Below the pieces are notes generated by a model that was not told the DNA's origin, did not search any database, and saw nothing but the letters and a program-made list of their open reading frames with translations. The translations under genes were made by a program, and so were the position numbers. Of a stretch of 64,000 nt of DNA, positions 504 to 59,565 are shown piece by piece (within the stretch, counting starts at the first letter, position 1; each line of letters begins with the position of its first letter). Source of the DNA: an uncultured bacterium (GTDB lineage Bacteria > Babelota > Babeliae > Babelales > Babelaceae); the NCBI GenBank assembly GCA_963713855.1, contig OY970209.1, forward strand, positions 1,120,001 through 1,184,000, in the 5' to 3' direction.

Positions 504-2777
504 ATGAATAAAAAGATACTTCTAGGTTTAATCCTGAGTCTGGCGGGAAAAATGCAAGCGAGCATTACGTGTACCGCTCAGACGCACGGGCCCTATACTT
601 TGCCTCTTGGCTCCGTAGATTGCTCATCTGTAGCGTTTTCCCCGTCAGGAAATTACCTAGCAAGCGTCGGCAATCTTGCAAATACTGTCACTATACTAAG
701 CGTGGGAGCAGGGGGAGTTTTGAGCAGTAGCGCTTCATATGCTATACCAAGCACCTCAGAAGGACCTATATCGGTTGCATTCTCTCCATCAGGAAATTAC
801 CTTGCTACTGCTAATTACTACACGAATGATGTCACTGTCTTTGCCGTAGGCGCCGGAGGAGTATTAAGCCCAGGTGTATCCTATACTTTGCCTGTAAATT
901 CACTGTCTCCTTACTCAATAGCATTTTTGCCATCGGGCAATTACCTTGCCATAGCTAATCAACTTTCGAGCAGTGTAACCATATTTACCGTAGGAGCGGG
1001 AGGGGTGCTGAGTGCGGGGAATTCATATGCTTTACCGCCGGGCTCATCTTATCCCACCTCAGTCTCAATCTCACCATCGGGTAATTATCTTGCTACGGCT
1101 AACTCGAACTCAAACAATGTAACCGTATTTACGATAGGCTCGGGCGGCACATTAAGCAATGGCGTGTCTTATGCTTTACCTTCCGGTTCCACCATTCCTG
1201 AGTCAGTAGCATTTTCTCCATCGGGCAATTATCTTGCAACAGCCAATGCAGGCTCAAATGATGCTACCACTTTCGCTGTAGGATCTGGTGGGGCTTTGAC
1301 TAATGCGACATCCTATCCTTTGCCTACTGGGTCTGCAAATCCTGACGGGATAGCATTCTCACCATCTGGTAACTATCTTGCCGTTGCCAACAAAAATTCA
1401 AATGACGTTACCGTATTTGCAGTTGGATCAGGAGGCGCATTAAGTGCAGGCACCTCATATCCTTGCCCAAATGCCTCAGCTCCTTTCTTCGTGACATTCT
1501 CGCCATCGGGTAACTATATCGCTACCGCTAATTTTAATTCTAATAATATTACTACTTTTACTGTCGGATCCACAGGGGTATTAAGCGGTGGTGAATCATA
1601 TCCTTTGCCTGAGGCTGCTATAAATCCCGATGCAGCAGCATTCTCATCATCAGGAACTTATCTTGTTACCGCTAATCGCGCCTCAACTAGCACAACGGTG
1701 TACAATATTGAACCAGGAGGATCCTTGAGCGGTGGTACTTCCTATCGTTGTCCTGGTGGATGCGTTCCTGTAGGGGTAGCATTCTCTCGATCGTGTGCTA
1801 TTCTCGCTCTTGCCAGTAGCTCGGGCATTAATACTTTTACGGTTGGATCGGGGGCCGCTTTGAGCCCTGTCGCGACCTACAGCGGGCCCGCTGTATCTTT
1901 GCCGAATTCAGCGGCATTCTCTTCCTCAGGAAACTATCTTGCTACGGCTAACCCTAGCAATCACTATGACCCAACAAGCGATGTCGTCGTATTTACTGTC
2001 GAAAATAACGGTACATTGAGCAATGGTGCAGCTTATGCTATACCTTCTACCATGTCTGAAACCCTATCAGTAGCGTTTTCTCCCTGCGGCACGCATCTTG
2101 CTGCAGCCAATTACGGCTCAAATGACGTTACCGTATTTGACCTTGGGCCAGGAGGCGTGTTAAGCGGAGGAAAATCCTATCCACTACCTGCTGGTTCTAC
2201 CCAGCCAATCGCCGTAGCTTTCTCGCTTGACGGGAACTATCTTGCTACGGCAAATCAAGGCTCAAATGATATCACGCTCTTTACAGTGGAGTCTGGGGGA
2301 ATTTTATGCAGCAATATGTCCTATCCCTTACCTGCTGGCTCTTCATCGCCGTCATTTTTAATATTCTCGCCCTCAGGCGATTTTCTCGCTAGTATCAACT
2401 CTGCGGATGTCACCATATTTTCCGTTTCATCAGGTGCTTTGTGCTCCGGCACTTCCTTTTCGTGGCCACTAACAGCATTAAGTCCATTATCAGCAGCGTT
2501 TCTTTCTCAAACAGATGACTATCTAGCTATTGCAAGTACGAGTTATAGTTCTATAGGAGTGCTTACTCTTAACTGTTCTACTCCAACCGTGTCTTGCACG
2601 CAAAATTCGTATTGTGTTCCGGTAAATTCCCCTTGCAATACGTCATATGTCCCCTGTAATATATCGAGCTCCTCACAGAATTCAGCAAGTAGCAGTGCTA
2701 GCACGAGGCCCTCCACTTTGTTGCTTATAAGCTCTTACTTGACCCGTTTGAGTAAATTATTTGCTTTAAGCTCATAA
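504..2777 (+). CDS. Secreted beta-propeller repeat protein, 14 blades, Cys/Ser-rich C-terminus with hydrophobic end
   Basis: Signal peptide MNKKILLGLILSLAG; 14 AFSPSGNY-type repeats (lactonase/YVTN/WD40-like); AAGGGAG upstream. Confidence 0.9.
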   Translation: MNKKILLGLILSLAGKMQASITCTAQTHGPYTLPLGSVDCSSVAFSPSGNYLASVGNLANTVTILSVGAGGVLSSSASYAIPSTSEGPISVAFSPSGNYLATANYYTNDVTVFAVGAGGVLSPGVSYTLPVNSLSPYSIAFLPSGNYLAIANQLSSSVTIFTVGAGGVLSAGNSYALPPGSSYPTSVSISPSGNYLATANSNSNNVTVFTIGSGGTLSNGVSYALPSGSTIPESVAFSPSGNYLATANAGSNDATTFAVGSGGALTNATSYPLPTGSANPDGIAFSPSGNYLAVANKNSNDVTVFAVGSGGALSAGTSYPCPNASAPFFVTFSPSGNYIATANFNSNNITTFTVGSTGVLSGGESYPLPEAAINPDAAAFSSSGTYLVTANRASTSTTVYNIEPGGSLSGGTSYRCPGGCVPVGVAFSRSCAILALASSSGINTFTVGSGAALSPVATYSGPAVSLPNSAAFSSSGNYLATANPSNHYDPTSDVVVFTVENNGTLSNGAAYAIPSTMSETLSVAFSPCGTHLAAANYGSNDVTVFDLGPGGVLSGGKSYPLPAGSTQPIAVAFSLDGNYLATANQGSNDITLFTVESGGILCSNMSYPLPAGSSSPSFLIFSPSGDFLASINSADVTIFSVSSGALCSGTSFSWPLTALSPLSAAFLSQTDDYLAIASTSYSSIGVLTLNCSTPTVSCTQNSYCVPVNSPCNTSYVPCNISSSSQNSASSSASTRPSTLLLISSYLTRLSKLFALSS

Positions 2778-2840
2778 ATAGTAAAATGAGGCTAAGATAA
2801 TGCTGTCCCAAAAAAAGGTTATGGAAAAAAGGATCTTAGG

Positions 2841-5800
2841 ATGATGCGTAAAACAATTGTGTATAAGTGTGTGTTTGTAGTAAATGCTGCCCTTATGCTG
2901 CTTACTAGTTTACCAATTCGTGCTTTAACCGAAGTTAGCTATGCTTTGCCGGGAGTTGCTCTCCACCCCCAGGATGGTGTTTTTTCTCCTAACGGTTCTT
3001 ATTTTGCAACCGCTAATGGTAATAGCGTATCGGTTTTTAACGTATCAGCACAAGGCTCATTAGTAAACGGTTTTTCTTATGCGTTACCGCCTAGTCCCAC
3101 CAAGCCGAGTCAAGGTGTGTTTTCAACAGATGGCGCCTATTTCTTTACGGCAAACGGCATCACTAACGATATTACTGTATTTAGTGTGGGCACAGGGACA
3201 TTGACCGAGTTGGCTTCCTATTTATTGCCAGTCACGTCAACAGATCCTGGCGGCATAGCCATTTCCCCCAATGGGTCTTATCTTGCTACCTGTAATGGTA
3301 CCAGCAGCGATGTCACTATCTTTGCTCTAGAAGGTAGTATTCTAGGTGCCGGTATTTCCTACCCTCTGCCTGGCAGCTCTACTCTGCCATATGCAATAGC
3401 ATTTTCGCCGAATGGTAATTATCTTGCCACCGTTAACGGGACGAACGATGTTACCGTATTTAGCGTGCAAACAGGAGGCGTATTGGGGCTTCCCACTTCA
3501 TACAGTTTGCCGGCTGGTTCCGGCTATCCCATAGCGATTGCATTTTCGCCAAATGGTTTATATCTTGCTACGGCTAATCCAAATTCCAATAATATAACGG
3601 TTTTCGACTTTGGGGCTGGAGGAGTTCTAACGGCAGGCACCTCTTATTCGCTGCCTGCAGGTTCCCAATCGCCTAACTCTGTCTCATTTTCACCTAATAA
3701 TGGCTATCTTGTAACTACTAATTTTACTTCAAGCGATGTAACCGTATTCAAGGTGCAAGCTGGTGGCGCTCTTACAGGCGCAACTTCCTATGGATTGCCT
3801 GCAGGTACTACAGTGCCTAACTCCGGAATGTTCTCACCAGACGGCTTATATTTTGCTTCTGCCAATACTAATAGCAGTTCAGGAGGAATTGCCAGCGTAA
3901 CAACATTTAGCTTCGGCTCAGGCGGAGCTTTGAGCGGCGGTATATCGTATACGCTCCCATCGAATTCCACCGACCCTGTTTCTGTTGCTTTTACTCCAAG
4001 CGGCTCATATCTTGCCACGGCTAATTTTAGCTCAAAGGATGTTACTATCTTTAGCGTTGCGTCAGGAGCATTGAGTGGAGGATTGTCCACTCAGGTCTTA
4101 TCCGAAGCCACCGAAAGCGTGGCGGTAGCATTTTCTCCTAACAGTCAGTACATAGCAGTTGCGGCCGATGTCGCAAACGAAATAGTTGTGTTTCAAGTAG
4201 GAGCCGGCGGCATCCTAAGCGGAGCTACCTCATATACGCTTCCTACAGTCTCTTCGGGGCCATCAGGGGTGGCATTTTCACCAAATGGCTTATATCTTGC
4301 TTCTGCTAATCAGTCGCCTCAGGGAGGTGTCACGATCTTTCAAGTGGGTTCAGGAGGTACATTGAGCGGAGCCACTTCATATACGCTTCCGGCAATTCCT
4401 TCAGGTACTGCCGGCGCAACGGCTGTAGCATTTTCGCCTAATGGCTCATATTTAGCAACGGCCGATCCTTTCGGGTACGTGACGATATGTCAAGTTGGAG
4501 CAGGAGGCGTCTTGAGCGGAGCTACATCATATGCGCTGCCAGGTTCAGCCACGCCTTCTTCTGTGGCGTTTTCTCCAAATGGGTCCTACCTTGCCACGGC
4601 CAATTATAATTCAAACAATGTAACGATGTTTACTGTCGGGGCTGGGGGCGCACTGAATAGTGGAACAAATTATCCAATGCCATCCGGTTCTATGGGCCCA
4701 GACTCGGCCGTATTTTCAACGGACAGTGCTTATCTTTTTACCGCTAACTTGTCGTCATTCAATGTGACCGTGTTTAATGTTGGAGCGGGTGGTGTTTTGA
4801 GCAGCGGCACATTATACCCACTACCTTCAAGTTCGGACGGGTCAAGCTCGGTCGCAATTTCCCCGAATGGGTCGTATTGCGCAATAACTAACGCCGGCTC
4901 CTCGGACGTTGACGTGTTTACTCTATCCGGAGGCGTTTTGAGTCAAGCAGCCTCCTATCTTTTACCACCATTACCGGTAAGTTCTCGTCAGCCAGCTGCT
5001 GTTTCTTTTTCGCCAAATATCCTCTACTTAGGAACTGCAAATTTTGCATCAAACGATGTATCGCTTTTTGACGTAAATCTCAACACCAATAACAATACGC
5101 TCACTTTGGGAGCCCGAAGATCGTATCCGCTTCCTTACAGTTCGGGAGCTTTGTCCTATCCAACTTCAATAGCATTTTCCGAAGATAGCTTGTTTGTAGT
5201 GACCTGCAATCAGAATACCAATGACGTTACCGTCTTTCCGCTTGCAGGAGGAATCTTAACAAAGCCAACTGCATATGCTTTGCCTGCAGGATCAGTTCAA
5301 CCTTCATCACTGCGATTTTCCCCAAACGATCTCTATCTTGCAGTTGCCAATCGCGGCTCTAATGACGTAACCATTTTTAGCTTTACTGCCGGAGTCCCAA
5401 GCGGGGCTGTTAATTATCCTTTGCCTGGAGGATCTTCTCTGCCGGCGGCGCTTGCGTTTTCGCCCGACGGCGCATATCTTGCGACTGCTAATTATGGCTC
5501 AAATGACATCACTCTTTTTCAGGTTATGGGAGGCACTCTTAATAGCGGTACTTCACAGCTGCTTCCAGTTGGCTCGACGGGTCCCCAAGCAATTGTGTTT
5601 CTCATCCCGATCGGTAACAACTACGTTATTTTTACAGCCAATGGCAACTCTCATGACGTCACTGCGTTCAAGTTGCAGTCTGGATCGTTGAGTTCCGGAC
5701 TATCCTATCCTTTGCCCGCAGCAGACCTTAATCCCCAATCAATCGATGTTTCGCCAAGCGAAGGATTCTTGGCCACCGCTAACAGTGCTTCAAGCACCTT

Positions 5801-6173
5801 TACTCTCTTTGCGCTCGATCAAGGCGCTCTGTTCAATGGTACATCATTTCACTTGCCCAACAATTCGCTACATTGTGTTTCAGTCAATTTTGCCCCGGTT
5901 GCTAATACGACAAACAATACATACCTAGCGACGGCAAATTTTTATTCGAATGACGTGTCGATTGGCAGCCTGTTTGGAGCAGGCGATGGCTCAAATAGTG
6001 GTGGAACAGGAGACGGAGGTAGTAATCCTCCTTTAGGCGTCATTATAGGTGTATCCGTAGGAGTTCCCGTTGCTCTAGGTGCCCTGGCTATTGCGGGTGC
6101 AGTCACGGCTTTCGTGCTGTATAAATTCTGGCTTTATAAACATCGTACTTCGCTTGACTCTGTTAGCCTTTAG
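2841..6173 (+). CDS. Membrane-anchored beta-propeller repeat protein, 21 blades
   Basis: Signal peptide, 21 blades, Gly/Ser linker, TM PLGVIIGVSVGVPVALG, tail YKFWLYKHRTSLDSVSL; closest paralog is 34461..37772. Confidence 0.9.
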   Translation: MMRKTIVYKCVFVVNAALMLLTSLPIRALTEVSYALPGVALHPQDGVFSPNGSYFATANGNSVSVFNVSAQGSLVNGFSYALPPSPTKPSQGVFSTDGAYFFTANGITNDITVFSVGTGTLTELASYLLPVTSTDPGGIAISPNGSYLATCNGTSSDVTIFALEGSILGAGISYPLPGSSTLPYAIAFSPNGNYLATVNGTNDVTVFSVQTGGVLGLPTSYSLPAGSGYPIAIAFSPNGLYLATANPNSNNITVFDFGAGGVLTAGTSYSLPAGSQSPNSVSFSPNNGYLVTTNFTSSDVTVFKVQAGGALTGATSYGLPAGTTVPNSGMFSPDGLYFASANTNSSSGGIASVTTFSFGSGGALSGGISYTLPSNSTDPVSVAFTPSGSYLATANFSSKDVTIFSVASGALSGGLSTQVLSEATESVAVAFSPNSQYIAVAADVANEIVVFQVGAGGILSGATSYTLPTVSSGPSGVAFSPNGLYLASANQSPQGGVTIFQVGSGGTLSGATSYTLPAIPSGTAGATAVAFSPNGSYLATADPFGYVTICQVGAGGVLSGATSYALPGSATPSSVAFSPNGSYLATANYNSNNVTMFTVGAGGALNSGTNYPMPSGSMGPDSAVFSTDSAYLFTANLSSFNVTVFNVGAGGVLSSGTLYPLPSSSDGSSSVAISPNGSYCAITNAGSSDVDVFTLSGGVLSQAASYLLPPLPVSSRQPAAVSFSPNILYLGTANFASNDVSLFDVNLNTNNNTLTLGARRSYPLPYSSGALSYPTSIAFSEDSLFVVTCNQNTNDVTVFPLAGGILTKPTAYALPAGSVQPSSLRFSPNDLYLAVANRGSNDVTIFSFTAGVPSGAVNYPLPGGSSLPAALAFSPDGAYLATANYGSNDITLFQVMGGTLNSGTSQLLPVGSTGPQAIVFLIPIGNNYVIFTANGNSHDVTAFKLQSGSLSSGLSYPLPAADLNPQSIDVSPSEGFLATANSASSTFTLFALDQGALFNGTSFHLPNNSLHCVSVNFAPVANTTNNTYLATANFYSNDVSIGSLFGAGDGSNSGGTGDGGSNPPLGVIIGVSVGVPVALGALAIAGAVTAFVLYKFWLYKHRTSLDSVSL

Positions 6174-6412: not shown

Positions 6413-8698
6413 ATGGTTAGAATGATGGCAGTTATCTCGCGCCTACTCAGTGTTGTGCTTGTTTTCTCTATGAATACAAATCTGGACGCTCTGTGTTCTC
6501 TTGCTGGTACATCTTACGGTTTACCGTCAGGCTCTACAGGACCTTATTCAGTAGCATTTTCCCCCTCAGGAAATTACCTTGCCACTGCTAATCAAAGCAC
6601 AGGTAATGTAACCATATTTACCACAGGCCCGCAAGGGGCGTTAAGCGCAGGCGCTTCCTATGCTCTGCCTTCAGGCTCTACATCGCCCTATGCAGTAGCG
6701 TTCTCTCCTTCCGGAAATTATCTTGCTACGGTTAACTTTGGCTCAAATAATGTAACAATGTTTACTGTAGGGTCAGGAGGGGCGTTAAGCGGAGGAACAA
6801 CCTATGGATTACCATCTGGCTCTAATGCGCCTTATTCAATAGCATTTTCGCCCTCGGGAAATTATCTTGCCATCGCAAATGGAGGATCGAGTGATGTGTC
6901 AGTATTTGCCGTAGGAGCGGGAGGCGCATTAAGCGGAGGAACAAACTATGCATTGCCATCGGGCTCCATAGAGTGCGAATCGGTAGCATTTTCACCATTA
7001 GGCAATTATTTGGCTACCGCTAATCCTGGCTCAAATGATGTGACACTATTTACTGTAGGAGCGGGGGGAGCGTTAAGTAACGCGAAATCTTATCCCTTAC
7101 CTTCGGGGTCTGTAGGACTTTATTCATTAGCATTTTCGCCGAATGGGTCATTTCTGGCCACTGCTAATTACAATTCGAATAATGTAACGATATTTACAGT
7201 AGGAGTAGATGTATTAAGCGGAGGAACGTCTTATGCTTTACCTTCTGGTTCTACACAACCTTATGCAGTGACATTTTCACCATCAGGCAATTATTTAGTT
7301 ACCTCCAGTTCCTCCACAAATACTGTAACCCTATTTACCGTAGGAACTGGGGGAGTATTAAGCGGTGGAACCTCCTCTGGTTTACCTGCTAATTCTTCAC
7401 AACCTTATTCAGTAGCTTTTTCACCGACAGGCAATTATTTTGCTACCTCTAATTATGGCTCAAATAACGTCACGGTATTTACAGTAAGCTGTGCAGGCAC
7501 AACGGGCCCAGGTACTTCTTATCCTCTGCCATCAGGGTCTAAGCAGCCTGACTCTATTGCCCTTTCACCTAACGGGCTCTATCTTGCAACAGCCAACTAC
7601 GGCTCTCACGACGTAACATTATTTAACGTTACTCTTCAGGGTACAGCAACACTTAATGCAGGAATATCCTACGCGTTGCCATCTAACTCGTTTGAGCCGA
7701 CAGACATAGCTTTTTCTTCTCAATCCGCGTATCTTGCAACGGCCAATAGCAATTCGAATGATGTAACACTCTTTACCATTAATGAGGGACAGTTACAGCA
7801 AGGCACATCATATGGTTTACCAGCAGGCTCTTCAAGACCGACTGCACTTGCTTTTTCTCCTAATGACCTTTATTTAGCAGTTGCCAATAGTAATTCGAGT
7901 GACGTGACCATTTTTAGTGTAACAGGTGGAACTTTAACAAACCCTGCTTCTTATCAACTACCAATCGGGTCTTTATATCCTGTTGACATTGCTTTTACAC
8001 CTGATAGTAGTTACCTTACAACAGCAAATGCCCATTCGAATGGAACCACTATTTTCAAGCTGTCATCCGGTTCGCTCGTAAACGGTTTTTCTCAAAAACT
8101 TCCAAGCGGTTCGAGTAAACCTGTCTCGCTCGCTTTCTTACCCGGTTCAGGCGTGCTTCTTCTTGCTACGGCCAATGAGGGCTCAAACGACATAAGTATC
8201 CTAAGCTTGCAAGGCAGCAACTTCAATGCTCTTGAATCATATCCCATCCCTGTTGAGCCCGTTGCCATTGCTGCCTCACCGAACGGAACCTATCTGGCTC
8301 TTGCTCAGAGCATTTTGAATGGCATTACCATTCTTAACGTTAATAACAACACGGTAATTCAAAACGTCTTTTATTATTTGCCCGACAATTCAAGCGATTG
8401 TCAGGCTATCGCGTTTTCTCCAGATGGTGCTTATATTGTAACAGCTAACTTTGCTACAAATGACGTCTCGCTCGTTCCCCTTCTTGGCAGTACTGGGGAC
8501 GGAAGCAGCACATCCGGATCGGGCGGTTCGAGTAACAACCTTGCTATTATTCTCGGAACAACATTAGGAACAGGCGTTGCTTTTGTAAGTGTGGTCGCTG
8601 CTATTGCTGCTTTTTCGGCATTTACTTACTGGCGCCATACGCAAAGGATAAAAAAGTTGTCAAGCCTGACAGGAGCCCTAGCCGTCGACCAAAATTGA
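6413..8698 (+). CDS. Membrane-anchored beta-propeller repeat protein, 14 blades
   Basis: Signal peptide; 7 blades bracketed by Cys (ALCSL...VSC) plus 7 blades; Gly/Ser linker, TM helix, basic tail. Confidence 0.9.
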   Translation: MVRMMAVISRLLSVVLVFSMNTNLDALCSLAGTSYGLPSGSTGPYSVAFSPSGNYLATANQSTGNVTIFTTGPQGALSAGASYALPSGSTSPYAVAFSPSGNYLATVNFGSNNVTMFTVGSGGALSGGTTYGLPSGSNAPYSIAFSPSGNYLAIANGGSSDVSVFAVGAGGALSGGTNYALPSGSIECESVAFSPLGNYLATANPGSNDVTLFTVGAGGALSNAKSYPLPSGSVGLYSLAFSPNGSFLATANYNSNNVTIFTVGVDVLSGGTSYALPSGSTQPYAVTFSPSGNYLVTSSSSTNTVTLFTVGTGGVLSGGTSSGLPANSSQPYSVAFSPTGNYFATSNYGSNNVTVFTVSCAGTTGPGTSYPLPSGSKQPDSIALSPNGLYLATANYGSHDVTLFNVTLQGTATLNAGISYALPSNSFEPTDIAFSSQSAYLATANSNSNDVTLFTINEGQLQQGTSYGLPAGSSRPTALAFSPNDLYLAVANSNSSDVTIFSVTGGTLTNPASYQLPIGSLYPVDIAFTPDSSYLTTANAHSNGTTIFKLSSGSLVNGFSQKLPSGSSKPVSLAFLPGSGVLLLATANEGSNDISILSLQGSNFNALESYPIPVEPVAIAASPNGTYLALAQSILNGITILNVNNNTVIQNVFYYLPDNSSDCQAIAFSPDGAYIVTANFATNDVSLVPLLGSTGDGSSTSGSGGSSNNLAIILGTTLGTGVAFVSVVAAIAAFSAFTYWRHTQRIKKLSSLTGALAVDQN

Positions 8699-8910: not shown

Positions 8911-11900
8911 ATGGTTATGAAGACTAGCGTAGTACTAAGCATAGTGTTATGTTTGGTTGCAAGAATAGAAGCGAATAATAGTTGTTCATTGGATATCGGC
9001 GTAAATTACGCTTTACCTGCTGGCTCTCTTAATCCTAATGCAATAGCCTTTTCCCCCTCGGGAAATTATGCGGCCATTGCTAATACAAACTCAAATTCTG
9101 TTACTGTGTGTACCGTTGGAGCAGGAGGGGTGTTAAGTGGGCCTGTGTCTTACGCTTTACCTTCAAGTTCTCTATCTCCTTATTCAGTAGCCTTTTCCCC
9201 TTCCGGCAATTATCTTGCTACTGCTAATTTTAATTCCAATGATGTTACAGTATTTACCGTGGGGTCAGGCGGAGTGTTAAGTGGAGCTACATCTTACGCG
9301 TTGCCAACAGGTTCTAGGAACCCTTATTCAATAACGTTCTCGCCTTCGGGCAGTTATCTTGTTACCGCTAACGTCAGTTCAAGCGACGTAACACTATTTT
9401 CCGTAGGAGCGGGCGGAGTTTTAAATGCAGGGGCATCTTATCTTGCAGGTACATCCCCTTATTCAGTAATGTTTTCACCATCAGGTTACCTTGCTTGTGC
9501 TAATTGGGGTTCAAACAATGTAACCATGTTTACCATTGGTACGGGAGGTATGATACTCTTCACGACATCTTATGCGTTACCTGCTGGTGCCACAGAACCT
9601 ACCTCGCTTGCTTTTTCACCGTCAGGTAGCTATTTGGCCACTGCTAATGAAGGCACAAATAATGTAACCGTATTTCAAGTAACAGGCGGCTCATTAAGTG
9701 GAGCAATATCATATGCTTTACCTGGTGGGTCAACGATTCCTTTTTCTGTGGCGTTTTCGCCGTCGGGTAATTATCTTAGTACCGCTAATGCTGTTTCGAA
9801 CGATGTAACGACATTCACAGTAGGATCGGGAGGAGCATTGAGCGGAGCGGCCTCCTTCGCTTTACCTTCAGGTTCTAAAGGACCTCAATCAATAGCATTT
9901 TTACCATCAGGTAATTATCTTAGTACCGCTAATTACACCTCAAATGATATAACTACATTTACGGTGGGCGCAGGAGGAGCATTGAGCGGGGGTAATTCAT
10001 TTACTTTGCCTATAAGTTCAATCAAACCTTATTCGGCGGCTTTCTCGCCGACGGGAAATTATGTCGCCACCGCTAACTTTGGCTCAAATAGTGTAACAAC
10101 GTTTACTGTCAGCGGAGGAGTATTAAGCGGAGCAGCGTCATATGGCTTACCTTCCGGGTCGACGGGGCCTTATGCAGTAGCGTTTTCGCCCTCGGGAAAT
10201 TATCTAGCAACCGCTGATTCATCGTCAAACAGCGTAACAGTATTTACGGTAGGGGCTGGAGGTGCTCTCAGCGCCGGGGCTTCATATACCTTGCCTGCGG
10301 GTTCGACGACTCCTCAAGCAATAACATTTTCAACATCGGGCAATTATCTCGCCACCGGCAACTTTGGTTCGAATGATATAACAATATTCTTGGTAGGTGC
10401 GGGAGGAACGTTGAGCGGTGCTCAATCATATGCTTTGCCTGCAGGTTCTCAACAACCTTATTCTGTAGTATTTTCACCCTCAGACAGCTATTTAGCTACT
10501 GCTAATTTTAATGGTAATGTGACTATGTTCACCGTAGGTGCTGGCGGCACCTTGAACAGTGTAGCATCATATCTCGTACCATCAGCCGCTCGATCAGTGG
10601 CGTTTTCCCCATCGGGCAATTTTCTCGCTTGTGCTAATCAAGGCACGAATAATGTAACCGTATTTACAGTAGGCACCGGTGGAACATTGAGCGGGGCAAC
10701 GACCTATCCCTTACCTTTTGACTCTATAGAGCCTATTTCATTAGCATTTTCCCCATCGGGTACTTATCTTGTTTGCGCTAATGGATTTTCAAACGTAAAT
10801 GGTGTAACAATATTTACAGTAAATGCAGCAGGAACGTTGAGTGAGGCGGTGTCTTATGATTTACCTCCAGGCTCTACAGCGCCTTTGTCGGTGGCATTTT
10901 CACCATCAGGAAATGCTTTAGTTACTGCTAATCCCTCTTCAAACGAAGTAACGCTATTTACTATCAATTGCGCCTCAAATCCGGCATTCCAAGGAACATC
11001 CTATCCCTTACCTATTGGATCTCGTGAGCCTCGCTCGATAGCCATTTCAAAAGAAGGAATGTATTTAGCAACCGGGAATTACAATTCGAGTGACGTAACG
11101 CTCTTTTCAATCGATCCAAATGGCATTCTTAATAACGCAGCTTCATTCTTGTTGCCAGCAGGCTCGTTAGCGCCAGCAGACGTAGCATTCTCATTTAACT
11201 CGTCTTATCTTGCAACCGCAAACAGTAGAACGAATGACGTGACGCTCTTTGAACTAACTGGAGGAAAGCTTATAGGAGCAAGCTCTTACAAGCTACCGAG
11301 CAATTCAACGCAGCCGGTATCGATCCAATTTTCACCCAACGGGTACTTAGCGACTGCCAATAGTAAATCTGGGGACATAACTCTTTTTAAAGTAGGCGCG
11401 GGAACCCTGAGCAATGCTCTTTCTTACGTATTGCCTTCTAACTCATCTAATCCAGTAGCGGTAGCGTTTTCATCCGATGGCTCCTATCTAGCGACGGCAA
11501 ATCTATTGTCAAATGACATAACACTCTTTAATGCTACCAATGGCGCATTAAAGAGCATTTCATCTCAAAAGTTGCCGGCAGATTCAAGCATGCCGCAATC
11601 AGTAATATTTTTACCGGGCTCTAATGGGAATATTTTCGTGGCAACTGCAAACAGCAATTCCAGTGATGTAACGATATTTCCGGTAAATGGAGGCGTATTA
11701 GAACCTGGCACATCATATAAACTTCCGTTAGGCTCAACAGATCCGCTTTTTATCGCAGTTGCCCCTCAAGGAGTATATCTAGGAACGGCAAATGGCTTAT
11801 CTAATACTTTTACCTTGTTTGCCATAACTAATGGGGTACTTGACGAAGGCTTTTCATACAATCTACCCGGAAATTCGAGCAATGATGTAGCTATCACATT

Positions 11901-12183
11901 TTCACCGGTATTGACAAGCACGGGCAATGTGTTTCTGGCAACGGCAAACAGTGATTCGAATGATGTATCGGTAGCAACAATTTTTGGTAGTGAGCAAGGA
12001 GGAGATGGCGGCAATCTTCCTATAGGGGTTATTATAGGAACAACAGTTGGAGTGCCTGTAGCCCTCGGTCTTATAGCAACGGTAAGTGCGGTTAGCGCCT
12101 TCCTTTTCTATAAGTATTGGCATAAACATCGCGGTCTTCAAAGCGTGAATTATAGTGGTCCAGAATCTACGGATACCTTGTGA
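8911..12183 (+). CDS. Membrane-anchored beta-propeller repeat protein, 21 blades
   Basis: Signal peptide; 14 blades bracketed by Cys (NNSCSL...INC) plus 7; TM LPIGVIIGTTVGVP; tail YKYWHKHRGLQSVNYSGPESTDTL. Confidence 0.9.
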   Translation: MVMKTSVVLSIVLCLVARIEANNSCSLDIGVNYALPAGSLNPNAIAFSPSGNYAAIANTNSNSVTVCTVGAGGVLSGPVSYALPSSSLSPYSVAFSPSGNYLATANFNSNDVTVFTVGSGGVLSGATSYALPTGSRNPYSITFSPSGSYLVTANVSSSDVTLFSVGAGGVLNAGASYLAGTSPYSVMFSPSGYLACANWGSNNVTMFTIGTGGMILFTTSYALPAGATEPTSLAFSPSGSYLATANEGTNNVTVFQVTGGSLSGAISYALPGGSTIPFSVAFSPSGNYLSTANAVSNDVTTFTVGSGGALSGAASFALPSGSKGPQSIAFLPSGNYLSTANYTSNDITTFTVGAGGALSGGNSFTLPISSIKPYSAAFSPTGNYVATANFGSNSVTTFTVSGGVLSGAASYGLPSGSTGPYAVAFSPSGNYLATADSSSNSVTVFTVGAGGALSAGASYTLPAGSTTPQAITFSTSGNYLATGNFGSNDITIFLVGAGGTLSGAQSYALPAGSQQPYSVVFSPSDSYLATANFNGNVTMFTVGAGGTLNSVASYLVPSAARSVAFSPSGNFLACANQGTNNVTVFTVGTGGTLSGATTYPLPFDSIEPISLAFSPSGTYLVCANGFSNVNGVTIFTVNAAGTLSEAVSYDLPPGSTAPLSVAFSPSGNALVTANPSSNEVTLFTINCASNPAFQGTSYPLPIGSREPRSIAISKEGMYLATGNYNSSDVTLFSIDPNGILNNAASFLLPAGSLAPADVAFSFNSSYLATANSRTNDVTLFELTGGKLIGASSYKLPSNSTQPVSIQFSPNGYLATANSKSGDITLFKVGAGTLSNALSYVLPSNSSNPVAVAFSSDGSYLATANLLSNDITLFNATNGALKSISSQKLPADSSMPQSVIFLPGSNGNIFVATANSNSSDVTIFPVNGGVLEPGTSYKLPLGSTDPLFIAVAPQGVYLGTANGLSNTFTLFAITNGVLDEGFSYNLPGNSSNDVAITFSPVLTSTGNVFLATANSDSNDVSVATIFGSEQGGDGGNLPIGVIIGTTVGVPVALGLIATVSAVSAFLFYKYWHKHRGLQSVNYSGPESTDTL

Positions 12184-15950: not shown

Positions 15951-15991
15951 GTAGTTAAAACTGCTCAGAAGGATACCATGAAAGGTTGCTC

Positions 15992-18837: not shown

Positions 18838-21129
18838 TTAAAGCGTTTCTGTAGCTAATTCTGTCCCTCCAAAATTAACACTTCCACCGCGATGCTTGTA
18901 CCAATACTTGTAAAGTACATAAGCGCTTATACCGCCTACGGCCGCTATTATTACCAATGCTACAGGTACACCAACGGTCGTTCCTATGATGGCACCTATG
19001 GGAAGGCTGCTCCCATCGCCATTACCATTTTCTCCTTGGCCAACAGTACCAAAAATCGTTACTACGGATACATCATTTGAATCACTATTTGCTGTCGCAA
19101 AAAAAACATTCCCCGTTCTCAATCCGGAAGAGAATGTCACTGCTACGTCATTGCTTGAATTTCCGGGCAGATTATACGAGAAGCTTTGATCAAGTGTTCC
19201 GTTACTCTGCTCAAACAGGGTAAAGGTATTAGAAAGACCATTTGCCGTTACTAGATATGTACCTTGAGGAGCAACTGCAATAAAAAGGGGATTAGTCGAA
19301 CCTAAGTTCAATTTATACGATATACCGGTTTTTAAAATACCTCCATTTATTGGAAATAGAGTTACATCACCCGAATCACTATTTGCAGTCGCTACAAAAA
19401 TACCTACGGAGGTTAGCAAAAACGCTACCGAGTGTGGCATGCTGGAATTAGCCGGCAATTTTTGGGACGAAATACTTTTTAATACCCCGTTTGTGGCATT
19501 AAAAAGGGTCACATCATTTGATAGAGCATTTGCTGTTGCAAGGTATGAGCCGTCGGGTGAAAATGCCACCGCTACCGGGTTAGTTGAATTAGCAGGCAAC
19601 GCATAAGACAGCGCATGACTAAGAATTCCCGCTTCTATTTTAAAAAGAGTGATATCTCCCGATTGACTATTTGCTGTTGCCAGATAAGCATCGTTCGGTG
19701 AAAATTCTACCGAAACAGGCTGCGTCGAATTGCTTGGTAATCTATATGATCGGGCACCGGCTAATTTTCCCCCGATTACGTCAAATAAAGTTATATCATT
19801 TGTTTTGCTATTTGCTGTCGCAAGGTATGTTGTATTAAAAGAGAATGCAACACTTGCTGGCGCTAATGATCCTAATGGTAATAAGAATGAACTTGCATTG
19901 CTCAGTGTGCCGTTTTGACTTGCCAAAAAGAGCGTAACGTCGCTTGTATTGTAATTGCCTGTTGCCACATATAAACCATCGTTGGAAACAGCAATTGAAT
20001 GTGGTTCTCGAGAGCCGGGAGGTAAAGGGAATGATGTTCCTTCTACGGCTTGATTTGCAGGACAATTTACCGTAAACACGGTTACATTATTTGAGCTTTG
20101 ATTAGCAGTAACAAGATAATTCCCGGATGGCGAAAATGCAACCGAAAAAGGAGTCGATGCTCCAGCAGAAACGGGGTAAGACACAGCTTGGCTTAATATC
20201 CCTTGGGAGCTTACAGAAAATAACGTTACATCATTTGAGCCATAATTAGCGGTTGCAAGATAGTTTCCTGATGGCGAGAATTCTATCGAAATGGGGTTTA
20301 CCGAACCACTAGGCAATGAGTAAGAAATAGCGTTAGTAAGCGTACCACCCGCTCCAACTGTAAGCACTGTTACAGTACTCGAGTTTTGGCTCGCGATAGC
20401 CACATAATCACCTGAAGGCGAAAATGCAGCTGAAGAAGGACCGTTGCTTGCGGCAGGCAGAGCATACGACACCGCGCCGCTCAGAACACCACCGGCACCT
20501 ACTTGGAATACTGTTACGTTATTGGAGGATAAATTGGTAGTGAGCACGTAGTTACCTGAAGGTGAAAAAGCCGCTGAATAGATTCCTGTTGAGCCAGCAG
20601 GCAGAGCATACGACGTGCCTGCGCTTAACGTACCTCCGGTCCCTACGGTAAACATTGTCACATTATTCGAACCATTATTAGCAGTAGCAAGGTAATTGCC
20701 ATTGGGTGAGAATTTTATTGAAAAAGGACTTGTCGAACCGCCTGGCAGAGCATATGATACTGCTCCGCTTAAAGCTCCCCCCGATCCCGCAGAAAATACT
20801 GTTACCTCGTTTGAAGCATCAGCAGTTGCAAGATAATTTCCTGATGGTGAAAAGGCCAAACTGTAAGGTCCTGAAGAAGCTCCCGGCAAAGGATAGGACG
20901 TCACGCTAACTAGAGTACCTTGCAAGGACGATGAGAAGATGGTCACGTTTGCGGTACTCAAATTTGCGGTAGCTAGGTAATTGCCTGAAGGCGAAAACGC
21001 GGCTGAGGAAGGCCCAGCGCCCGAAGGCAAACCGTAATTTGCACCCTGTTGCAATGAGCAACTGTTATTCGCTTCTATTCTTGCCGCTATTAAATACAAT
21101 ACTATGCTTAGTGCTACCTTAGTCTTCAT
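18838..21129 (-). CDS. Membrane-anchored beta-propeller repeat protein, 14 blades
   Basis: Start at ATG 21129 (MKTKVALSIVL..RIEANNSCSL, nearly identical to the 8911 leader); 7+7 blades; TM; tail YKYWYKHRGGSVNFGGTELATETL. Confidence 0.9.
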   Translation of the reverse strand: MKTKVALSIVLYLIAARIEANNSCSLQQGANYGLPSGAGPSSAAFSPSGNYLATANLSTANVTIFSSSLQGTLVSVTSYPLPGASSGPYSLAFSPSGNYLATADASNEVTVFSAGSGGALSGAVSYALPGGSTSPFSIKFSPNGNYLATANNGSNNVTMFTVGTGGTLSAGTSYALPAGSTGIYSAAFSPSGNYVLTTNLSSNNVTVFQVGAGGVLSGAVSYALPAASNGPSSAAFSPSGDYVAIASQNSSTVTVLTVGAGGTLTNAISYSLPSGSVNPISIEFSPSGNYLATANYGSNDVTLFSVSSQGILSQAVSYPVSAGASTPFSVAFSPSGNYLVTANQSSNNVTVFTVNCPANQAVEGTSFPLPPGSREPHSIAVSNDGLYVATGNYNTSDVTLFLASQNGTLSNASSFLLPLGSLAPASVAFSFNTTYLATANSKTNDITLFDVIGGKLAGARSYRLPSNSTQPVSVEFSPNDAYLATANSQSGDITLFKIEAGILSHALSYALPANSTNPVAVAFSPDGSYLATANALSNDVTLFNATNGVLKSISSQKLPANSSMPHSVAFLLTSVGIFVATANSDSGDVTLFPINGGILKTGISYKLNLGSTNPLFIAVAPQGTYLVTANGLSNTFTLFEQSNGTLDQSFSYNLPGNSSNDVAVTFSSGLRTGNVFFATANSDSNDVSVVTIFGTVGQGENGNGDGSSLPIGAIIGTTVGVPVALVIIAAVGGISAYVLYKYWYKHRGGSVNFGGTELATETL

Positions 21130-34320: not shown

Positions 34321-34460
34321 AGTGAGATCTCGCCTCACCTGGAAAATAAAAAATGCCATTCGATCCATCCAAGATAGCTCAAAATTTAGATAAGATGGTT
34401 CTTTGTCTGGAGGGAACATTTGCCTGCAAAGTGAAGAGCGATACTGCTTACTCGTTATTT

Positions 34461-40090: not shown

Positions 40091-40096
40091 AATTTT

Positions 40097-40374: not shown

Positions 40375-41745
40375 TTAATCGAGAGGCAACTGAGTATCAA
40401 CAATAGTAGAGCTTCTGGCTGCTCGTAGTCTGCTCAGATATTTATAGAGGAAAAATCCGCCGACCGCAGTTGCTACTAATGATGCAAGGCCTGCTGGAAT
40501 ACCAACGGTAGTTCCTAAGATAAGACTAAGAGGTAAATCATCGCTACCTATTTTGGTATCAGAAGTGCTTCCCGTCGTCGTCGAATTATCTCCATCGCCT
40601 TGGCTTGGACAGCTTATTTGAAAAAGTATTATATGACTTTGACCGGAGCATAATGCGGGCCAACAACATTGAGAACTAGTAAAAAAATATAAACTATTAG
40701 GCAAAAATGCGACTGCATCGGGCATGAATGAGCCTTCTGGCAACGGATAAGAGGTTGCTCTCGTCAGTTTTCCTTCATTTTGTACTTCAAAGAGCGTTAC
40801 ATTACTCACACCATGGCCATTGCCCCAAAATCCGTAATTGGCAACAACGAGGTATGAACCGTTCGATGAAAATGCTAATGACCGGGGGATGCGAGAATCA
40901 GAAGGTAATTTGTAGGCAGTCGGTCGGCTCAGGCGCCCCCCTTTTTCTAAGTGAAATAAAGTTACATTACTGGAATTTTGATTTGCTGTAACTAGGTAGT
41001 TTCCATCTGGCGAAATCGCTATAGAACGAGGCGCAACACATCCAGCAGGTAAAGGATACGAAGTGCCCTCGTCCAAGGCGCCATCCTCTCCAACTCTGAA
41101 TAGTACGACATCGTCAAGACCATTGAAATTTGAACGAAAATTAGCAGTGGCAAGGTACTTGCCATCGGGTGAAAATGTCAATACAATATCATTCATAAGC
41201 TGACTTGAACCAGAGGGCAGTTCATACGATCTACCATTGCTCAATATCCCGTCTTGACTTACATCAAATACAGTTACATTTTTTGAATCAATGTTAGCGG
41301 TGGCACACAATGAGCCATTAGGCGAAAATGCTATTGAGTTAGCACCTTGAGAACCCTGAGGTAAAGGATAACGCTTACTTTCGCTTAGCTGGCCGCCTAT
41401 TCCTACAGTAAAGACTGTTACATCACCTGTCGCTAAAGCGAGATATAAACTATTAGATGAAAAAGCTAATCCATGCGCCCCGCCCCCGTCACGGTAAGAC
41501 TTCCATGCGCCAAGTACACCTTGTGCCTCAACCGTTACTACGTTAACATGATCAGGACTTATGACAGCGCAATAATCGCCATTAGGCGAGCAAGCAATAG
41601 CGCCAGAGGGAAGACAGGTGGCTTGAGGCAAAGAATAATTAACGCCCGATACTAATAATGAGGGGCAATCAGCATATATTACTTGGCCCACCGTGAATAG
41701 AGTACATGCCAAGATATAAGAAACAGAACTCATTGAATGGTGCAT
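40375..41745 (-). CDS. Membrane-anchored beta-propeller protein, 7 blades
   Basis: ATG 41745 with AGGGG SD; signal peptide; 7 more charged blades bracketed by Cys; TM LPLSLILGTTVGIP and YKY tail. Confidence 0.88.
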   Translation of the reverse strand: MHHSMSSVSYILACTLFTVGQVIYADCPSLLVSGVNYSLPQATCLPSGAIACSPNGDYCAVISPDHVNVVTVEAQGVLGAWKSYRDGGGAHGLAFSSNSLYLALATGDVTVFTVGIGGQLSESKRYPLPQGSQGANSIAFSPNGSLCATANIDSKNVTVFDVSQDGILSNGRSYELPSGSSQLMNDIVLTFSPDGKYLATANFRSNFNGLDDVVLFRVGEDGALDEGTSYPLPAGCVAPRSIAISPDGNYLVTANQNSSNVTLFHLEKGGRLSRPTAYKLPSDSRIPRSLAFSSNGSYLVVANYGFWGNGHGVSNVTLFEVQNEGKLTRATSYPLPEGSFMPDAVAFLPNSLYFFTSSQCCWPALCSGQSHIILFQISCPSQGDGDNSTTTGSTSDTKIGSDDLPLSLILGTTVGIPAGLASLVATAVGGFFLYKYLSRLRAARSSTIVDTQLPLD

Positions 41746-42072
41746 GGCTACCCCTTTGAATATAGGTTTGCGTGCTTTGCTACTCTGACCTCCGGTTAAA
41801 CATAACATCACCTATTTTTTAATCAAGCTCATCACCGCACTTTCTATATAATGAAAAGATCTCTTAAGAAAGTCCGGCCGGCCAAATTTGAGTAGAAAAG
41901 AGGGCCTCGCATTGCACTGCTCAAAAAAGAGCCGCATGTTGATTTTTTGAGCATTTCTAGTAAATTCAAAATTACCAAATGAATAAAAAAACATAATTAT
42001 GTCTTATTAATAGGCGATTTATGACGTGGAAATTATTTCTATATAAAAAATAGTTCTATTGAGGAAAAAAGT

Positions 42073-44484: not shown

Positions 44485-44487
44485 CAG

Positions 44488-57169: not shown

Positions 57170-58342
57170 ATGAACGTTACTATTCATAGGAAAGTTATTT
57201 TACTTGGCTTTTTAAGCTTAATCTCTCTTATCTCTATAAGAATTAAAGCCAATTGCTGTTTAACGCAGGGCACTTCAACATCGCTGCCGGCAGGTTCGTC
57301 AGCCCCTGAGAGTATAACTTTCTCTCCTAACGGTTCTTATCTAGCTACAGCCAATCCTAATACCTCCAATAACATAACGTTGTTTAGCGTAACAGGCGGC
57401 ACCCTAAGTAGTGGAGTCTCCTACCCATTACCAGGAACCTCCTCAAACCCTCAATCAGTTAGTTTTTCTCCCAATAGTTCTCTATTAGCTACAGCCAATA
57501 GAGATAGTAATGACGTAACACTCTTTCAGTTATCAGGAGGATTGCTTACTGGGGCTTTGTCCACTCCACTACCATCAGGTTCTACGCTTCCCAAAGATGC
57601 AGCTTTTGCTCCCAATGGCTCATATCTTGCAGTGTGTAATGAAAGTTCAAATGATCTAACCATATTTCCTGTTTCAGGCACCGCCTTAGGCACAGGGACT
57701 TCTTCTACATTGCCTACGGGGTCGACCTATCCAATATCGCTTGCAATCGCTCAAAATAGTACGCAGCTTGCCACGGCAAACTTGGTGTCAAACGATGTAA
57801 CGCTCTTTACCGCAACCGCGCAAGGTAGCATTGTTTCAAAAATGTCGTACACTTTGCCATCGGGGGTTCAGTCTCCACGTGCTTTAGCATTTTCACCTAA
57901 CGGCCTTTATCTTGCTGTAGCATGCCAAGCACCAGCAAGTTATGTTGTTTTGTTTGATGTAAATTCTGGTGGAAGCTTAAGTAATGGGGTAGCTTATGCA
58001 CTATCCTCAACCGTTTCTGGACCCACAGGAGTTACTTTCTCAAACGATAACTCGTGTGTCGTTGTGTCGGCCAATAGCGCTCTAACAGTATTTACCATAA
58101 GCAGTGGAACCCTTACTAATGGTACGCTTTATAACTTACCAACGGGCTCTTTAGCGCCTTTTGAGGCCGCATTTTCCCCTTCAGGCGCGTATCTTGCAAC
58201 AGCTAATAATGGTTCAAGCAATATATCCTTATTTACTTACCCCTGCGTGCCTACGACAAATAGCGGCAACAACTCAAGCAGTAGTAGCGCTAGAATAATA
58301 CCTTGGTTCTTAACTAATTTCATGACGACGTACCTTAATTAA
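57170..58342 (+). CDS. Secreted 7-blade beta-propeller with Ser-rich/hydrophobic end
   Basis: Signal peptide, Cys-bracketed 7 blades, ends NSSSSSARIIPWFLTNFMTTYLN. Confidence 0.9.
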   Translation: MNVTIHRKVILLGFLSLISLISIRIKANCCLTQGTSTSLPAGSSAPESITFSPNGSYLATANPNTSNNITLFSVTGGTLSSGVSYPLPGTSSNPQSVSFSPNSSLLATANRDSNDVTLFQLSGGLLTGALSTPLPSGSTLPKDAAFAPNGSYLAVCNESSNDLTIFPVSGTALGTGTSSTLPTGSTYPISLAIAQNSTQLATANLVSNDVTLFTATAQGSIVSKMSYTLPSGVQSPRALAFSPNGLYLAVACQAPASYVVLFDVNSGGSLSNGVAYALSSTVSGPTGVTFSNDNSCVVVSANSALTVFTISSGTLTNGTLYNLPTGSLAPFEAAFSPSGAYLATANNGSSNISLFTYPCVPTTNSGNNSSSSSARIIPWFLTNFMTTYLN

Positions 58343-58386
58343 TCGTCAAAAAACGTAACTTGTTCTATATCAAAAGGAGAAAGTGT

Positions 58387-59565
58387 ATGAAATTCAATGC
58401 GCTCTTGAGCATGATACTCTTAACGACAGTTCAATTACATCCAAGCTGTACGCTAAAAACTGGTGCTTATTATTCCTTACCGACTGGCTCGACTGGAACG
58501 CAATATATAGCGTATACCCCCGATAGTGCTTATGCAGCTACGGCCAACTCTACTTCAAATGATGTAACGTTCTTTACGGTCTTTCTAAATGGATCGTTGG
58601 GTGGTACTTCTTATAAGCTTCCCACGGGTTCCACGTCTCCGGAAGGCTTAGCATTTAATGCAAGCCAAACACTTCTTGCTACTGCAAATAATGGTTCAAA
58701 TAACGTATCGATCTTTCCAGTAACAGGTTCAACGCTCGGAACTCCTATCTCATATGCCCTGCCTGCCGGTTCAACAGCTCCAAACGCAATAGTATTCTCG
58801 CCGAACGGGTCCTATGTAGCAACTGCTAATGAATCTAAAGACGTTACCATGTTTTCGGTAGGAGCGGGCGGCGCGTTGACCGGTACCTCTTATCCTTTGC
58901 CTGCTGGATCGGGCTTTCCATTATCGATAGCTTTTTCGCCAGATGGTTCTACGCTTCTTGTTACAGATGGGTTATCTAATGGCGTAATTCTTTTTAAAGT
59001 AACGGCTGGAGCATTGGATGCGGGCACTTTTTATCCCGTTCCAAGTGGATCCATTAACGCTACATCAGTGATTTTTTCACCCGACAGCTCGCTTGTGGCT
59101 ACAGCAAATTTTGCTTCTAATGATGTAACACTCTTTACTTTCTCAAATCAAACGTTAAGTAATGCGCAGTCATTTGCACTCCCTTCGGGAACAACTATGC
59201 CTCGCTCGGTAGCATTTTCGCCAGATAACTCTACATTAGCGGTCTGCAACAATACAGCTAATGTTGTTCTCTTCGATGTTTCAGGAAGTTCTTTAACTGG
59301 TGGTACCTCGTATCCGTTACCTTCAGGGCCATCGCCGCTTCCTTTATGTGTAACGTTTTCAAATACTGGTGCATATTTAGCTACAGCTAACTTTAATACA
59401 AATAATGTGGCGGTATTTCCAGTAACGTGTAGCAATCCTACAACTACAACTCAGACAACCACAACACCAACATCAACGACCGCTTCATCGTCATCAAGTT
59501 CCGCATCGAATACTAAAAGTGAGGCAGCCATAATTGTAAAAGCTTTAAAAGAATTATGCCTTTAA
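58387..59565 (+). CDS. Secreted 7-blade beta-propeller with Thr/Ser stalk
   Basis: AGGAG SD before ATG 58387; Cys-bracketed 7 blades; TTTTQTTTTPTSTTASSSSSSA stalk. Confidence 0.9.
   Translation: MKFNALLSMILLTTVQLHPSCTLKTGAYYSLPTGSTGTQYIAYTPDSAYAATANSTSNDVTFFTVFLNGSLGGTSYKLPTGSTSPEGLAFNASQTLLATANNGSNNVSIFPVTGSTLGTPISYALPAGSTAPNAIVFSPNGSYVATANESKDVTMFSVGAGGALTGTSYPLPAGSGFPLSIAFSPDGSTLLVTDGLSNGVILFKVTAGALDAGTFYPVPSGSINATSVIFSPDSSLVATANFASNDVTLFTFSNQTLSNAQSFALPSGTTMPRSVAFSPDNSTLAVCNNTANVVLFDVSGSSLTGGTSYPLPSGPSPLPLCVTFSNTGAYLATANFNTNNVAVFPVTCSNPTTTTQTTTTPTSTTASSSSSSASNTKSEAAIIVKALKELCL

Follow-up and report, generated by a model that had tools for sequence, protein, structure and literature searches.

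A Babelota family of predicted seven-bladed propeller proteins with constant bases, variable heads and a eukaryote-type membrane anchor

Propeller genes in the window

We analyzed a 64-kb stretch of DNA (the window), which is part of a single 1.52 Mb contig of a Babelota/Dependentiae genome (G000). The named relatives of its RplA belong to the lineage Dependentiae / Babeliaceae. Thirteen genes of one beta-propeller family occupy 29.3 kb of the window (46%). For comparison, a sister genome (G001), which has 56% amino-acid identity to G000, and a third propeller-bearing genome (G008) were used; G000 and G001 are each more than 90% complete. As judged from hydropathy and by eye, each gene encodes a hydrophobic signal-like N-terminus followed by blades of 47-48 residues. 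In nine of the 13 genes, the C-terminal end is a transmembrane anchor; in the other four (504, 38827, 57170 and 58387; genes are named by their first position), it is a Ser/Thr stalk and an amphipathic helix. The ends of the stalked members of the family were compared with GPI-anchor signals, which have a small-residue omega site and then an uncharged hydrophobic end: the Ser/Thr stalk and an SAASS-type motif are common, but the end is amphipathic and often charged. In the list below, the base is the last seven blades before the anchor, the head is the blades before the base, and the numbered cysteines bracket the head.

504..2777 (+): 14 blades; no transmembrane anchor; Ser-rich stalk, amphipathic end
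2841..6173 (+): 21 blades, the head starting at 2940 and the base at 4965; the anchor follows 5958; belongs to the class that lacks the cysteine pair; full-length paralogue of 34461
6413..8698 (+): 14 blades, the head starting at 6515 and the base at 7520; cysteine pair Cys28/Cys360; head of SPS type; base clade differs from that of 8911 and 18838
8911..12183 (+): 21 blades; Cys25/Cys687 close the 14-blade head, which starts at 9007; the base starts at 11002 and the anchor follows 11968
11995..12180 (+): host-like anchor, shown as an instance, with a Gly/Ser/Asp linker, then about 32 uncharged residues, a basic stop, the VN[FY] motif and a final Leu
18838..21174 (-): 14 blades; Cys39/Cys371; base clade is that of 8911 (21 blades)
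21485..23788 (-): 14 blades; Cys30/Cys357; base is sister to that of 30315
24132..27470 (-): anchored, with 21 blades; of the class that lacks the cysteine pair
30315..32033 (+): 10 blades, namely a 3-blade head (30405-30836, Cys26/Cys165), a full base and an anchor
34461..37772 (-): 21 blades; anchor; paralogue of 2841
38827..40090 (+): 7 blades in two frames; no transmembrane anchor
40375..41811 (-): anchored, with 7 blades; carries more charge than the other genes; tail without VNF motif
57170..58342 (+): 7 blades, followed by a Ser-rich stalk with an amphipathic end
58387..59565 (+): 7 blades, followed by a Thr/Ser stalk with an amphipathic end
133..384 (-): remnant, anchor only
27857..28153 (+): decayed blade remnant
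34061..34372 (-): remnant, two base-type blades
About 40170-40250 (-): partial blade seen by eye between two family genes, another remnant

For the 12 unbroken genes, our blade profile gave 14, 21, 14, 21, 14, 14, 21, 10, 21, 7, 7 and 7 blades, exactly the numbers counted by hand in the original prediction. The split gene 38827 was also predicted to have seven blades. These can be recognized by eye across two frames; the profile scores only 3-4 of the blades well. This gene has a stop at 39015 and a frame change near 39000-39015, and continues in the other frame to 40090. The break may be an assembly error, or else mark a pseudogene or a phase switch.

Extent of the family

A census by blade profile, as the original prediction had proposed, found 79 open reading frames (ORFs) and 874 blades in the whole G000 genome, which correspond to 9.5% of its DNA, and 48 ORFs and 554 blades in G001. 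The family is more extensive than the original prediction stated. About sixty G000 proteins are predicted to be exported seven-bladed propellers, and these take up about a tenth of the genome. Because 19 family ORFs lie between 1.1 and 1.2 Mb of G000, the cluster extends leftward beyond the window. A search with a single query detected the propeller in 3 of the 261 phylum genomes; G008 (90% complete) has only unanchored members among the stretches examined. The flanks of 17 of 51 family genes are syntenic in G001, but only one of the 51 has a family member at the corresponding site there, enclosed by the same neighbors. Therefore, the copies settle independently at new sites. No common promoter or mobile-element ends were found within 120 nt around the family genes, and Rfam gave no match in the window. 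All scores in the atlas searches were below 0.8. In the literature searched, which was limited to papers open without subscription and to their main texts, there was no description of the family. Tandem arrays of a different exported WD40-type propeller, without anchor, are present in other Babeliales (G021, G024 and G038; loci L101, L102, L105 and L106).

An AGGAGA ribosome-binding site precedes 16 of 81 family genes as compared with 64 of 1381 other genes. Because these sites are bacterial, the proteins are made by the bacterium, and translation on host ribosomes was rejected.

Blade numbers follow multiples of seven

Among ORFs with at least five blades, a multiple of seven (7, 14, 21 or 28) is the blade number of 51 out of 61 in G000 and of 33 out of 39 in G001; an even spread over 5-28 blades would yield one multiple of seven in six. 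This tally was made from the full ORF lists, the per-blade set being itself selected by blade number. The per-blade statistics below were obtained from 81 whole ORFs with 7, 10, 14, 21 or 28 blades (51 of 79 in G000, 30 of 48 in G001), and most of them were limited to the 55-56 anchored multi-propeller ORFs.

Several off-rule ORFs are pieces of frameshifted genes, which in a six-frame count total 7, 14, 14 or 20-21 blades. Some broken or truncated copies carry short heads, of 1, 3 or 4 blades. The intact short forms are the 3-blade head of 30315, the single clear intact exception to the rule in G000, and a 2-blade stalked gene in G001. Designed three-blade fragments are reported to oligomerise (PMC6805158). 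Gene breaks should be read cautiously: the G000 assembly also splits 9 of 157 conserved genes, as compared with 1 of 150 in G001. Among them are rpoB and rpoC (L011 8685-17085), each of which is broken over several frames, a sign of indel errors in the assembly. A split gene with a 4-blade head (G000:C1:1107931-1109800) lies about 42 kb from the intact 3-blade head of 30315; together they make seven, possibly by chance.

Because off-rule numbers arise and few persist, recombination generates blade numbers other than multiples of seven, few of which survive, and we infer selection for ring closure. The blade sequences match the propeller structures 2ymu, 5yzv and 3fgb. Together with the blade numbers, these matches suggest that seven blades close into one ring.

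The blade is lactonase-like in sequence and lacks the PRH motif

The best Pfam match of the family is Lactonase PF10282 (E = 1.7e-57 for gene 504). All seven proteins scanned passed the cut-off of this family, and databases name the relatives 6-phosphogluconolactonase. Such matches favor the idea that these are secreted or periplasmic lactonase-like enzymes multiplied for substrate range. Two variable loops of the blade align with the PRH and NE positions of a solved lactonase relative, 3fgb; we take these positions to be catalytic-face residues of PF10282 lactonases. Against the enzyme idea, neither PRH nor the His at its column is present in any of 1200 blades (NE is found in 40), the columns that match PRH of 3fgb are the most variable of the blade, and the ectodomains contain only 0.4% His and 0.6% Arg. 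The original prediction had named intact catalytic residues of a characterised lactonase as the observation that would speak against it; the PRH motif is absent from every blade. Thus, an enzymatic role is very unlikely. The family belongs with the seven-bladed PF10282 propellers (3fgb, 4qrj, 6igb PpgL and 1ri6 YbhE) by its blade sequence but differs from them in lacking the catalytic-face motif, in having several propellers per protein and in having an anchor. The face on which the two loops are predicted to lie is the one that propellers commonly use for binding. We predict a repertoire of propeller proteins that bind and do not catalyse, in which the base is steady and the heads are hypervariable.

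Constant base and variable head

According to the original prediction, the seven membrane-proximal blades are conserved from gene to gene, the distal blades are homogenised within each gene, and one or two distal propellers are exchanged as modules. The first part is confirmed. The nearest neighbor of 191 of 224 base blades is at the same position in the base of another gene, and base blades at the same position are 55% identical as compared with 45% at other positions. In the per-blade tree, which had been suggested as a check, base position needs 22 changes (151 when shuffled). A blade-7 signature, NSxxC/D, is present in 42 of the 56 anchored multi-propeller genes.

The heads gave a different result. 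In the head tree, gene needs 298 changes as compared with 316 when shuffled, so that there is a slight gene signal and no set of gene-specific clades; position needs 210 changes (249 when shuffled), and one consensus is common to all seven head positions. The predicted SPS and SPN subtypes are biased by gene in G000 (chi-square 152; the maximum of 2000 permutations was 61) and not in G001 (chi-square 38). At the DNA level, 50 of 371 head blades have their nearest neighbor in their own gene (11.7 expected), whereas 308 are nearest to the head of another gene. The within-gene homogenisation signal is thus real but modest, and the head blades are a family-wide shared pool more than gene-specific clades.

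The spacing at blades 7/8 and 14/15 of the head is still 47-48 residues, without a linker. A cysteine before blade 1 and a cysteine just after the last head blade are both present in 35 of 56 anchored genes, both absent in 19 and discordant in 2; the pair brackets heads of 3, 7, 14 and 21 blades alike. Because there are no linkers and the pair encloses heads of all these sizes, the head behaves as one clasped unit, which grows and shrinks by blades. Heads of different size are found on the same base clade (8911 and 18838; 21485 and 30315). Therefore, the predicted modular library stands in so far as a constant base carries variable heads; the exchanged unit is a tract of blades and not a whole propeller.

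Recombination and variation in the heads

Two stretches of identical DNA in G001, 215 and 189 nt long, link blades 9-12 of one gene to blades 3-6 of another with a different base, and an exact tract of 169 nt links blades 3-4 with 5-6, out of register, on different bases. Exact head tracts of at least 30 nt number 120 within genes and 65 between genes in G001, and 14 in all in G000. Two G001 genes are 96% alike in the base and 75% alike in the head. Thus, in G001, tracts of 1-4 blades are copied out of register within and between genes. The exchange pattern in G000 appears to be the same but older. Whole-propeller swapping as the main mode was rejected because of the out-of-register tracts and the absence of linkers within the head.

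Head variation concentrates in the two loops. Five loop positions, which are rich in Tyr, Ser, Gly and Asn (Tyr is commonest at two of the five), have 606 different signatures in 616 head blades. At these five codons, the pN/pS values were 0.21/0.29 to 0.40/0.41 in G001 heads and 0.035/0.27 to 0.056/0.39 in bases, where pN is about one seventh of pS. These positions are released from purifying selection in the heads and constrained in the bases. RecA is present. Reverse transcriptase was not found in G000, and one partial match was found in G001. A diversity-generating retroelement was rejected because no reverse transcriptase was found in G000 and 80 of 218 changes do not involve A. Selection for N-glycosylation was likewise rejected: there are 1017 sequons as compared with 1063 +/- 19 expected.

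Could the family be a self-amplifying repeat, spread by recombination without a selected function? Remnants and broken copies are common, and gene positions are not kept between the two genomes, as would be seen under drift. In contrast, purifying selection on framework and base is strong, blade numbers are multiples of seven, the cysteine pair is concordant in 54 of 56 genes, and the family fills 9.5% of a reduced genome. We regard drift as extremely unlikely.

Anchor and tail resemble those of an Acanthamoeba protein family

A profile of 26 bacterial anchors was searched against 1.84 billion proteins. It matched 66 proteins, 63 of them with new identifiers; 17 of these are members of the propeller family from other metagenomes and 46 are not. 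A common YDP-ended domain stands before the anchor in 15 of the 46; the others include generic eukaryote-type membrane proteins. Four loci of the YDP-ended family have 58-64% GC, eukaryote neighbors (a carnitine acyltransferase in pieces and a peptidase C78) and a GT-AG intron (88 nt). The 90% cluster of one anchor match includes ACA1_063090 of Acanthamoeba castellanii. This protein matches the YDP-ended family with E = 2e-21 and the bacterial anchor with E = 1.9e-7, at 35.7 bits as compared with at most 13.3 bits in 300 block shuffles. Acanthamoeba is a known host of Babelota, according to the consulted part of one paper (PMC12172432).

The uncharged span is 32 residues in the bacterial anchors and 31 in the eukaryote family, and the bacterial tail has a median length of 23 residues. 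A VNF-type motif with a terminal Leu is present in 37 of 56 bacterial anchors, in 11 of 18 of the eukaryote family and in 0 of 18 other eukaryote-type anchors. The motif lies 10-11 residues after the helix, with the same spacing in the bacterial and eukaryote-family anchors. Three of three distinct eukaryote loci that were found without the tail in the query also have the motif and the terminal Leu. The helix alone is not diagnostic of the ACA1_063090 family, whereas the tail appears to be. On these sequence comparisons, anchor and tail match an apparently intron-bearing eukaryote family that includes ACA1_063090, a point which is new here and was missed by the original prediction. The likeness extends over linker, helix, VNF-type motif and terminal Leu, and some members of the eukaryote family also have propeller heads (Kelch, RCC1); the bacterial proteins differ in that they have no sandwich-like domain and carry their own blade instead.

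The anchor is present in 2 of 261 genomes of the phylum, and in G000 and G001 it is found only on propeller genes and their remnants. The YDP-ended domain gave no match in six frames of either genome. Pfam has no family for the anchor, the PDB has nothing for the YDP-ended domain, and viral contigs gave no match. Longer relatives of one eukaryote match were searched for, and none was found. The Acanthamoeba-type proteins (L110-L113, P0317) are an apparently unnamed membrane-protein family with one common membrane-proximal domain and tail and with heads that vary among Kelch, RCC1 and Thr/Pro stalks. One weak ComC_SSD match (E = 0.0011) occurs in this family.

A resemblance of this kind might also arise if the anchor did not come from an amoeba but converged on eukaryote type I membrane proteins, its function being as in either of the readings weighed below. 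The segment is short and of low complexity, generic eukaryote anchors score nearly as high, and the eukaryote sandwich domain is absent from both genomes. Against convergence, a single eukaryote family, and 0 of 18 other anchors, shares the linker, the start of the helix, the motif of the tail with its spacing and the Leu at the end, and the anchor is confined to one genus. We consider it improbable.

Location of the proteins and proposed mechanism

The original prediction called the repertoire a surface one, a label that is not supported. G000 encodes BamA, two secretins, penicillin-binding proteins and an ATP/ADP translocase cluster, and LpxC was not found in this genome. These features fit the Babeliales envelope, for which two membranes without lipopolysaccharide are described in the consulted part of one paper (PMC4776705). 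Because the cell has two membranes, a Sec-exported protein with a C-terminal helix would face the periplasm by default. By default, then, the proteins would lie in the inner membrane, where variable loops and a host-type tail have no evident use. Rhomboid/rhombosortase (PF01694) and exosortase (PF09721) were found in none of the three genomes. GlyGly-CTERM or PEP-CTERM sorting was rejected on this ground and because a median tail of 23 residues is not very short. Genes for DsbB, DsbA-like proteins and VKOR were not found in G000 or G001, in which, at more than 90% completeness, absence is unproven. Since a use in the periplasm is not evident and sorting and Dsb genes were not found, delivery to the vacuole membrane is favored.

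Two secretin genes of about 1000 residues (L124 9384-18459), with PilM-like and GspC-like neighbors, lie beside an MlaE transporter gene. According to the consulted parts of the respective papers, Babela multiplies inside one Acanthamoeba vacuole and possesses no system other than type II (PMC4378268), and shedding of outer-membrane vesicles by Chromulinavorax seems to take place in the food vacuole (PMC6561590). We propose that the variable propeller binders act in host membranes, with the Acanthamoeba-like anchor in the membrane and the tail in the amoeba cytoplasm; we put the chance of this at about one in two. The starting point would be an older propeller gene with a stalk; no other kind was seen in the stretches of G008 examined. 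In the ancestor of the genus, such a gene may have captured the anchor exon-region of a host surface protein. RecA-type gene conversion would then reshuffle the head blades, selection would retain multiples of seven because only these close into rings, and the cysteine pair would form a disulphide clasp. After Sec export, the proteins might reach the vacuole membrane via the type II system or vesicles, and the tail would be read by the host sorting machinery. The heads would face the vacuole lumen or, after trafficking, the exterior of the amoeba, and may bind varied ligands in conflict with host factors, viruses or competing bacteria. The fuller proposal, that a captured host anchor and sorting tail present hundreds of binding faces, as a library that recombines, on the host vacuole or cell surface, is tentative. 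Whether it amounts to a symbiont-encoded variable-receptor system that uses host trafficking, with no described export route, we likewise put forward as a guarded suggestion.

Several observations weigh against the proposed action in host membranes. We know of no route by which a Sec-exported type I membrane protein passes from the inner membrane of a diderm to a host membrane. The transmembrane part taken by itself does not set the Acanthamoeba family apart: other eukaryote-type anchors have a median of 31 bits as compared with 35. When only the Acanthamoeba tail was shuffled, the real score was still reached in 10 of 300 cases. The comparison is partly circular, since it was the bacterial profile that had selected 15 of these 18 eukaryote-family sequences, and the bacterial helix is less hydrophobic (2.2 as compared with 3.1). 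Recent exchange, plain in G001, is faint in G000, where the longest exact tract is 44 nt. At the five head codons, pN is about equal to pS and does not exceed it, whereas positive selection would be indicated by an excess of pN. Glycosylation sequons are not enriched.

The main rival is that the proteins remain with the bacterium: their anchor would hold them in the inner membrane, and after release, or passage through the type II system, they would coat the cell as variable adhesins. We hold this to be possible, with the balance tilted against it. The coat would perhaps serve uptake by, or disguise from, amoebae, and the host-derived anchor would then be just a convenient stop-transfer helix, a version to which we give similarly limited weight. 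The AGGAGA sites and signal-like N-termini, the two secretins with GspC-like and PilM-like neighbors, and a default topology that requires no new route are all in keeping with a bacterial coat, and the stalked members without a helix suit it. A coat does not explain why 37 of 56 paralogues, in two species that are 56% alike, have retained the host-type cytoplasmic motif and the Leu at the end. Moreover, no rhomboid or exosortase was found that could free the anchor, and variable binding loops would be of little use if confined to the periplasm.

Other genes in the window

Ankyrin-type proteins (12351-16981, 28640-29611, 32987-33973, 42073-45858 and 61193-63876) are interleaved with the propeller genes. 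Most have signal-like N-termini that end in an ME motif, and they are typical of Babelota. The gene at 17043-17915 (-) encodes an exported, eukaryote-like cysteine-rich protein with CC repeats (Pfam Galaxin_repeat, E = 2.6e-10), and sits in a genome where no Dsb genes were found. Small exported cysteine-rich proteins without a Pfam match are encoded at 59632-60734 (-) and 46147-46539 (-); that at 59632 apparently has two copies of the domain in 60321. A PIN-domain gene at 38317-38715 (+) and an AlbA_2/HATPase_c_4 gene at 47341-48705 (-) are 91% and 73% identical, respectively, to their G001 matches as compared with the genome average of 56%, and are likely to be recent transfers. The genes at 48849-51302 (-) and 54847-55782 (+) encode exported proteins with no Pfam match and a common short repeated motif (RYNF/YLR..LL).

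Comparison with known systems and implications

Chlamydia Inc proteins are parasite proteins in host membranes, which are delivered by type III secretion and have a bilobed hydrophobic domain facing the host cytosol. PfEMP1 of Plasmodium, a eukaryote, is a variant antigen on the host surface with a variable head on a conserved cytoplasmic tail. The propeller family would resemble both as parasite proteins in host membranes, a location that we infer here; unlike the case of Inc, its single span of about 32 residues argues against a bilobed domain.

In the HNWD family of Podospora (het-d, het-e), ten cytoplasmic NACHT receptors, propeller repeats are exchanged within and between members and a few interaction-face residues per repeat diversify, according to the consulted part of one study (PMC1805685). 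Repeat exchange within and between loci is common to HNWD and the G001 genes. As far as that text describes HNWD, the differences are that here the N-terminal effector and NACHT domain were not encountered (there are only a signal-like N-terminus, blades and an anchor), that some 60 exported, membrane-anchored bacterial proteins have a frozen base, and that HNWD shows positive selection on the interaction face, whereas here pN only about equals pS. By analogy, diversification appears to work as in fungal HNWD, but the propeller family is not an HNWD member. Highly repetitive propellers amplified from single blades, lactonase-like families included, have peaks at 7 and 14 blades (PMC9218822, in part). 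Ongoing blade amplification is shared with them; that paper describes a continuum of blade numbers, whereas here a genome-wide family has peaks also at 21 and 28. In a term search of its accessible text, neither Dependentiae nor signal peptides nor transmembrane anchors turned up. Babela, Chromulinavorax and other TM6 bacteria have expanded signal-peptide ankyrin, WD40 and beta-propeller proteins (PMC4378268, PMC6561590 and PMC4776705, in part). These expansions are likewise lineage-specific and consist of repeat proteins with signal peptides that are directed at the host; the consulted parts of these papers mention no anchored family with multiples of seven blades and no host-type anchor, and the supplements may list such proteins.

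If the proposal is true, the family would be a bacterial counterpart of the fungal HNWD recognition repertoires, exported and fitted with a host-type anchor, and Acanthamoeba-like amoebae would be named as the likely host of an uncultured genus. The destination and route of the Babelota signal-peptide proteins, a question since the first Babelota genomes, would become testable. Moreover, the family may serve as a natural series for the study of ring-closure selection during blade amplification, and the blade, with five variable positions, as a natural binder scaffold.

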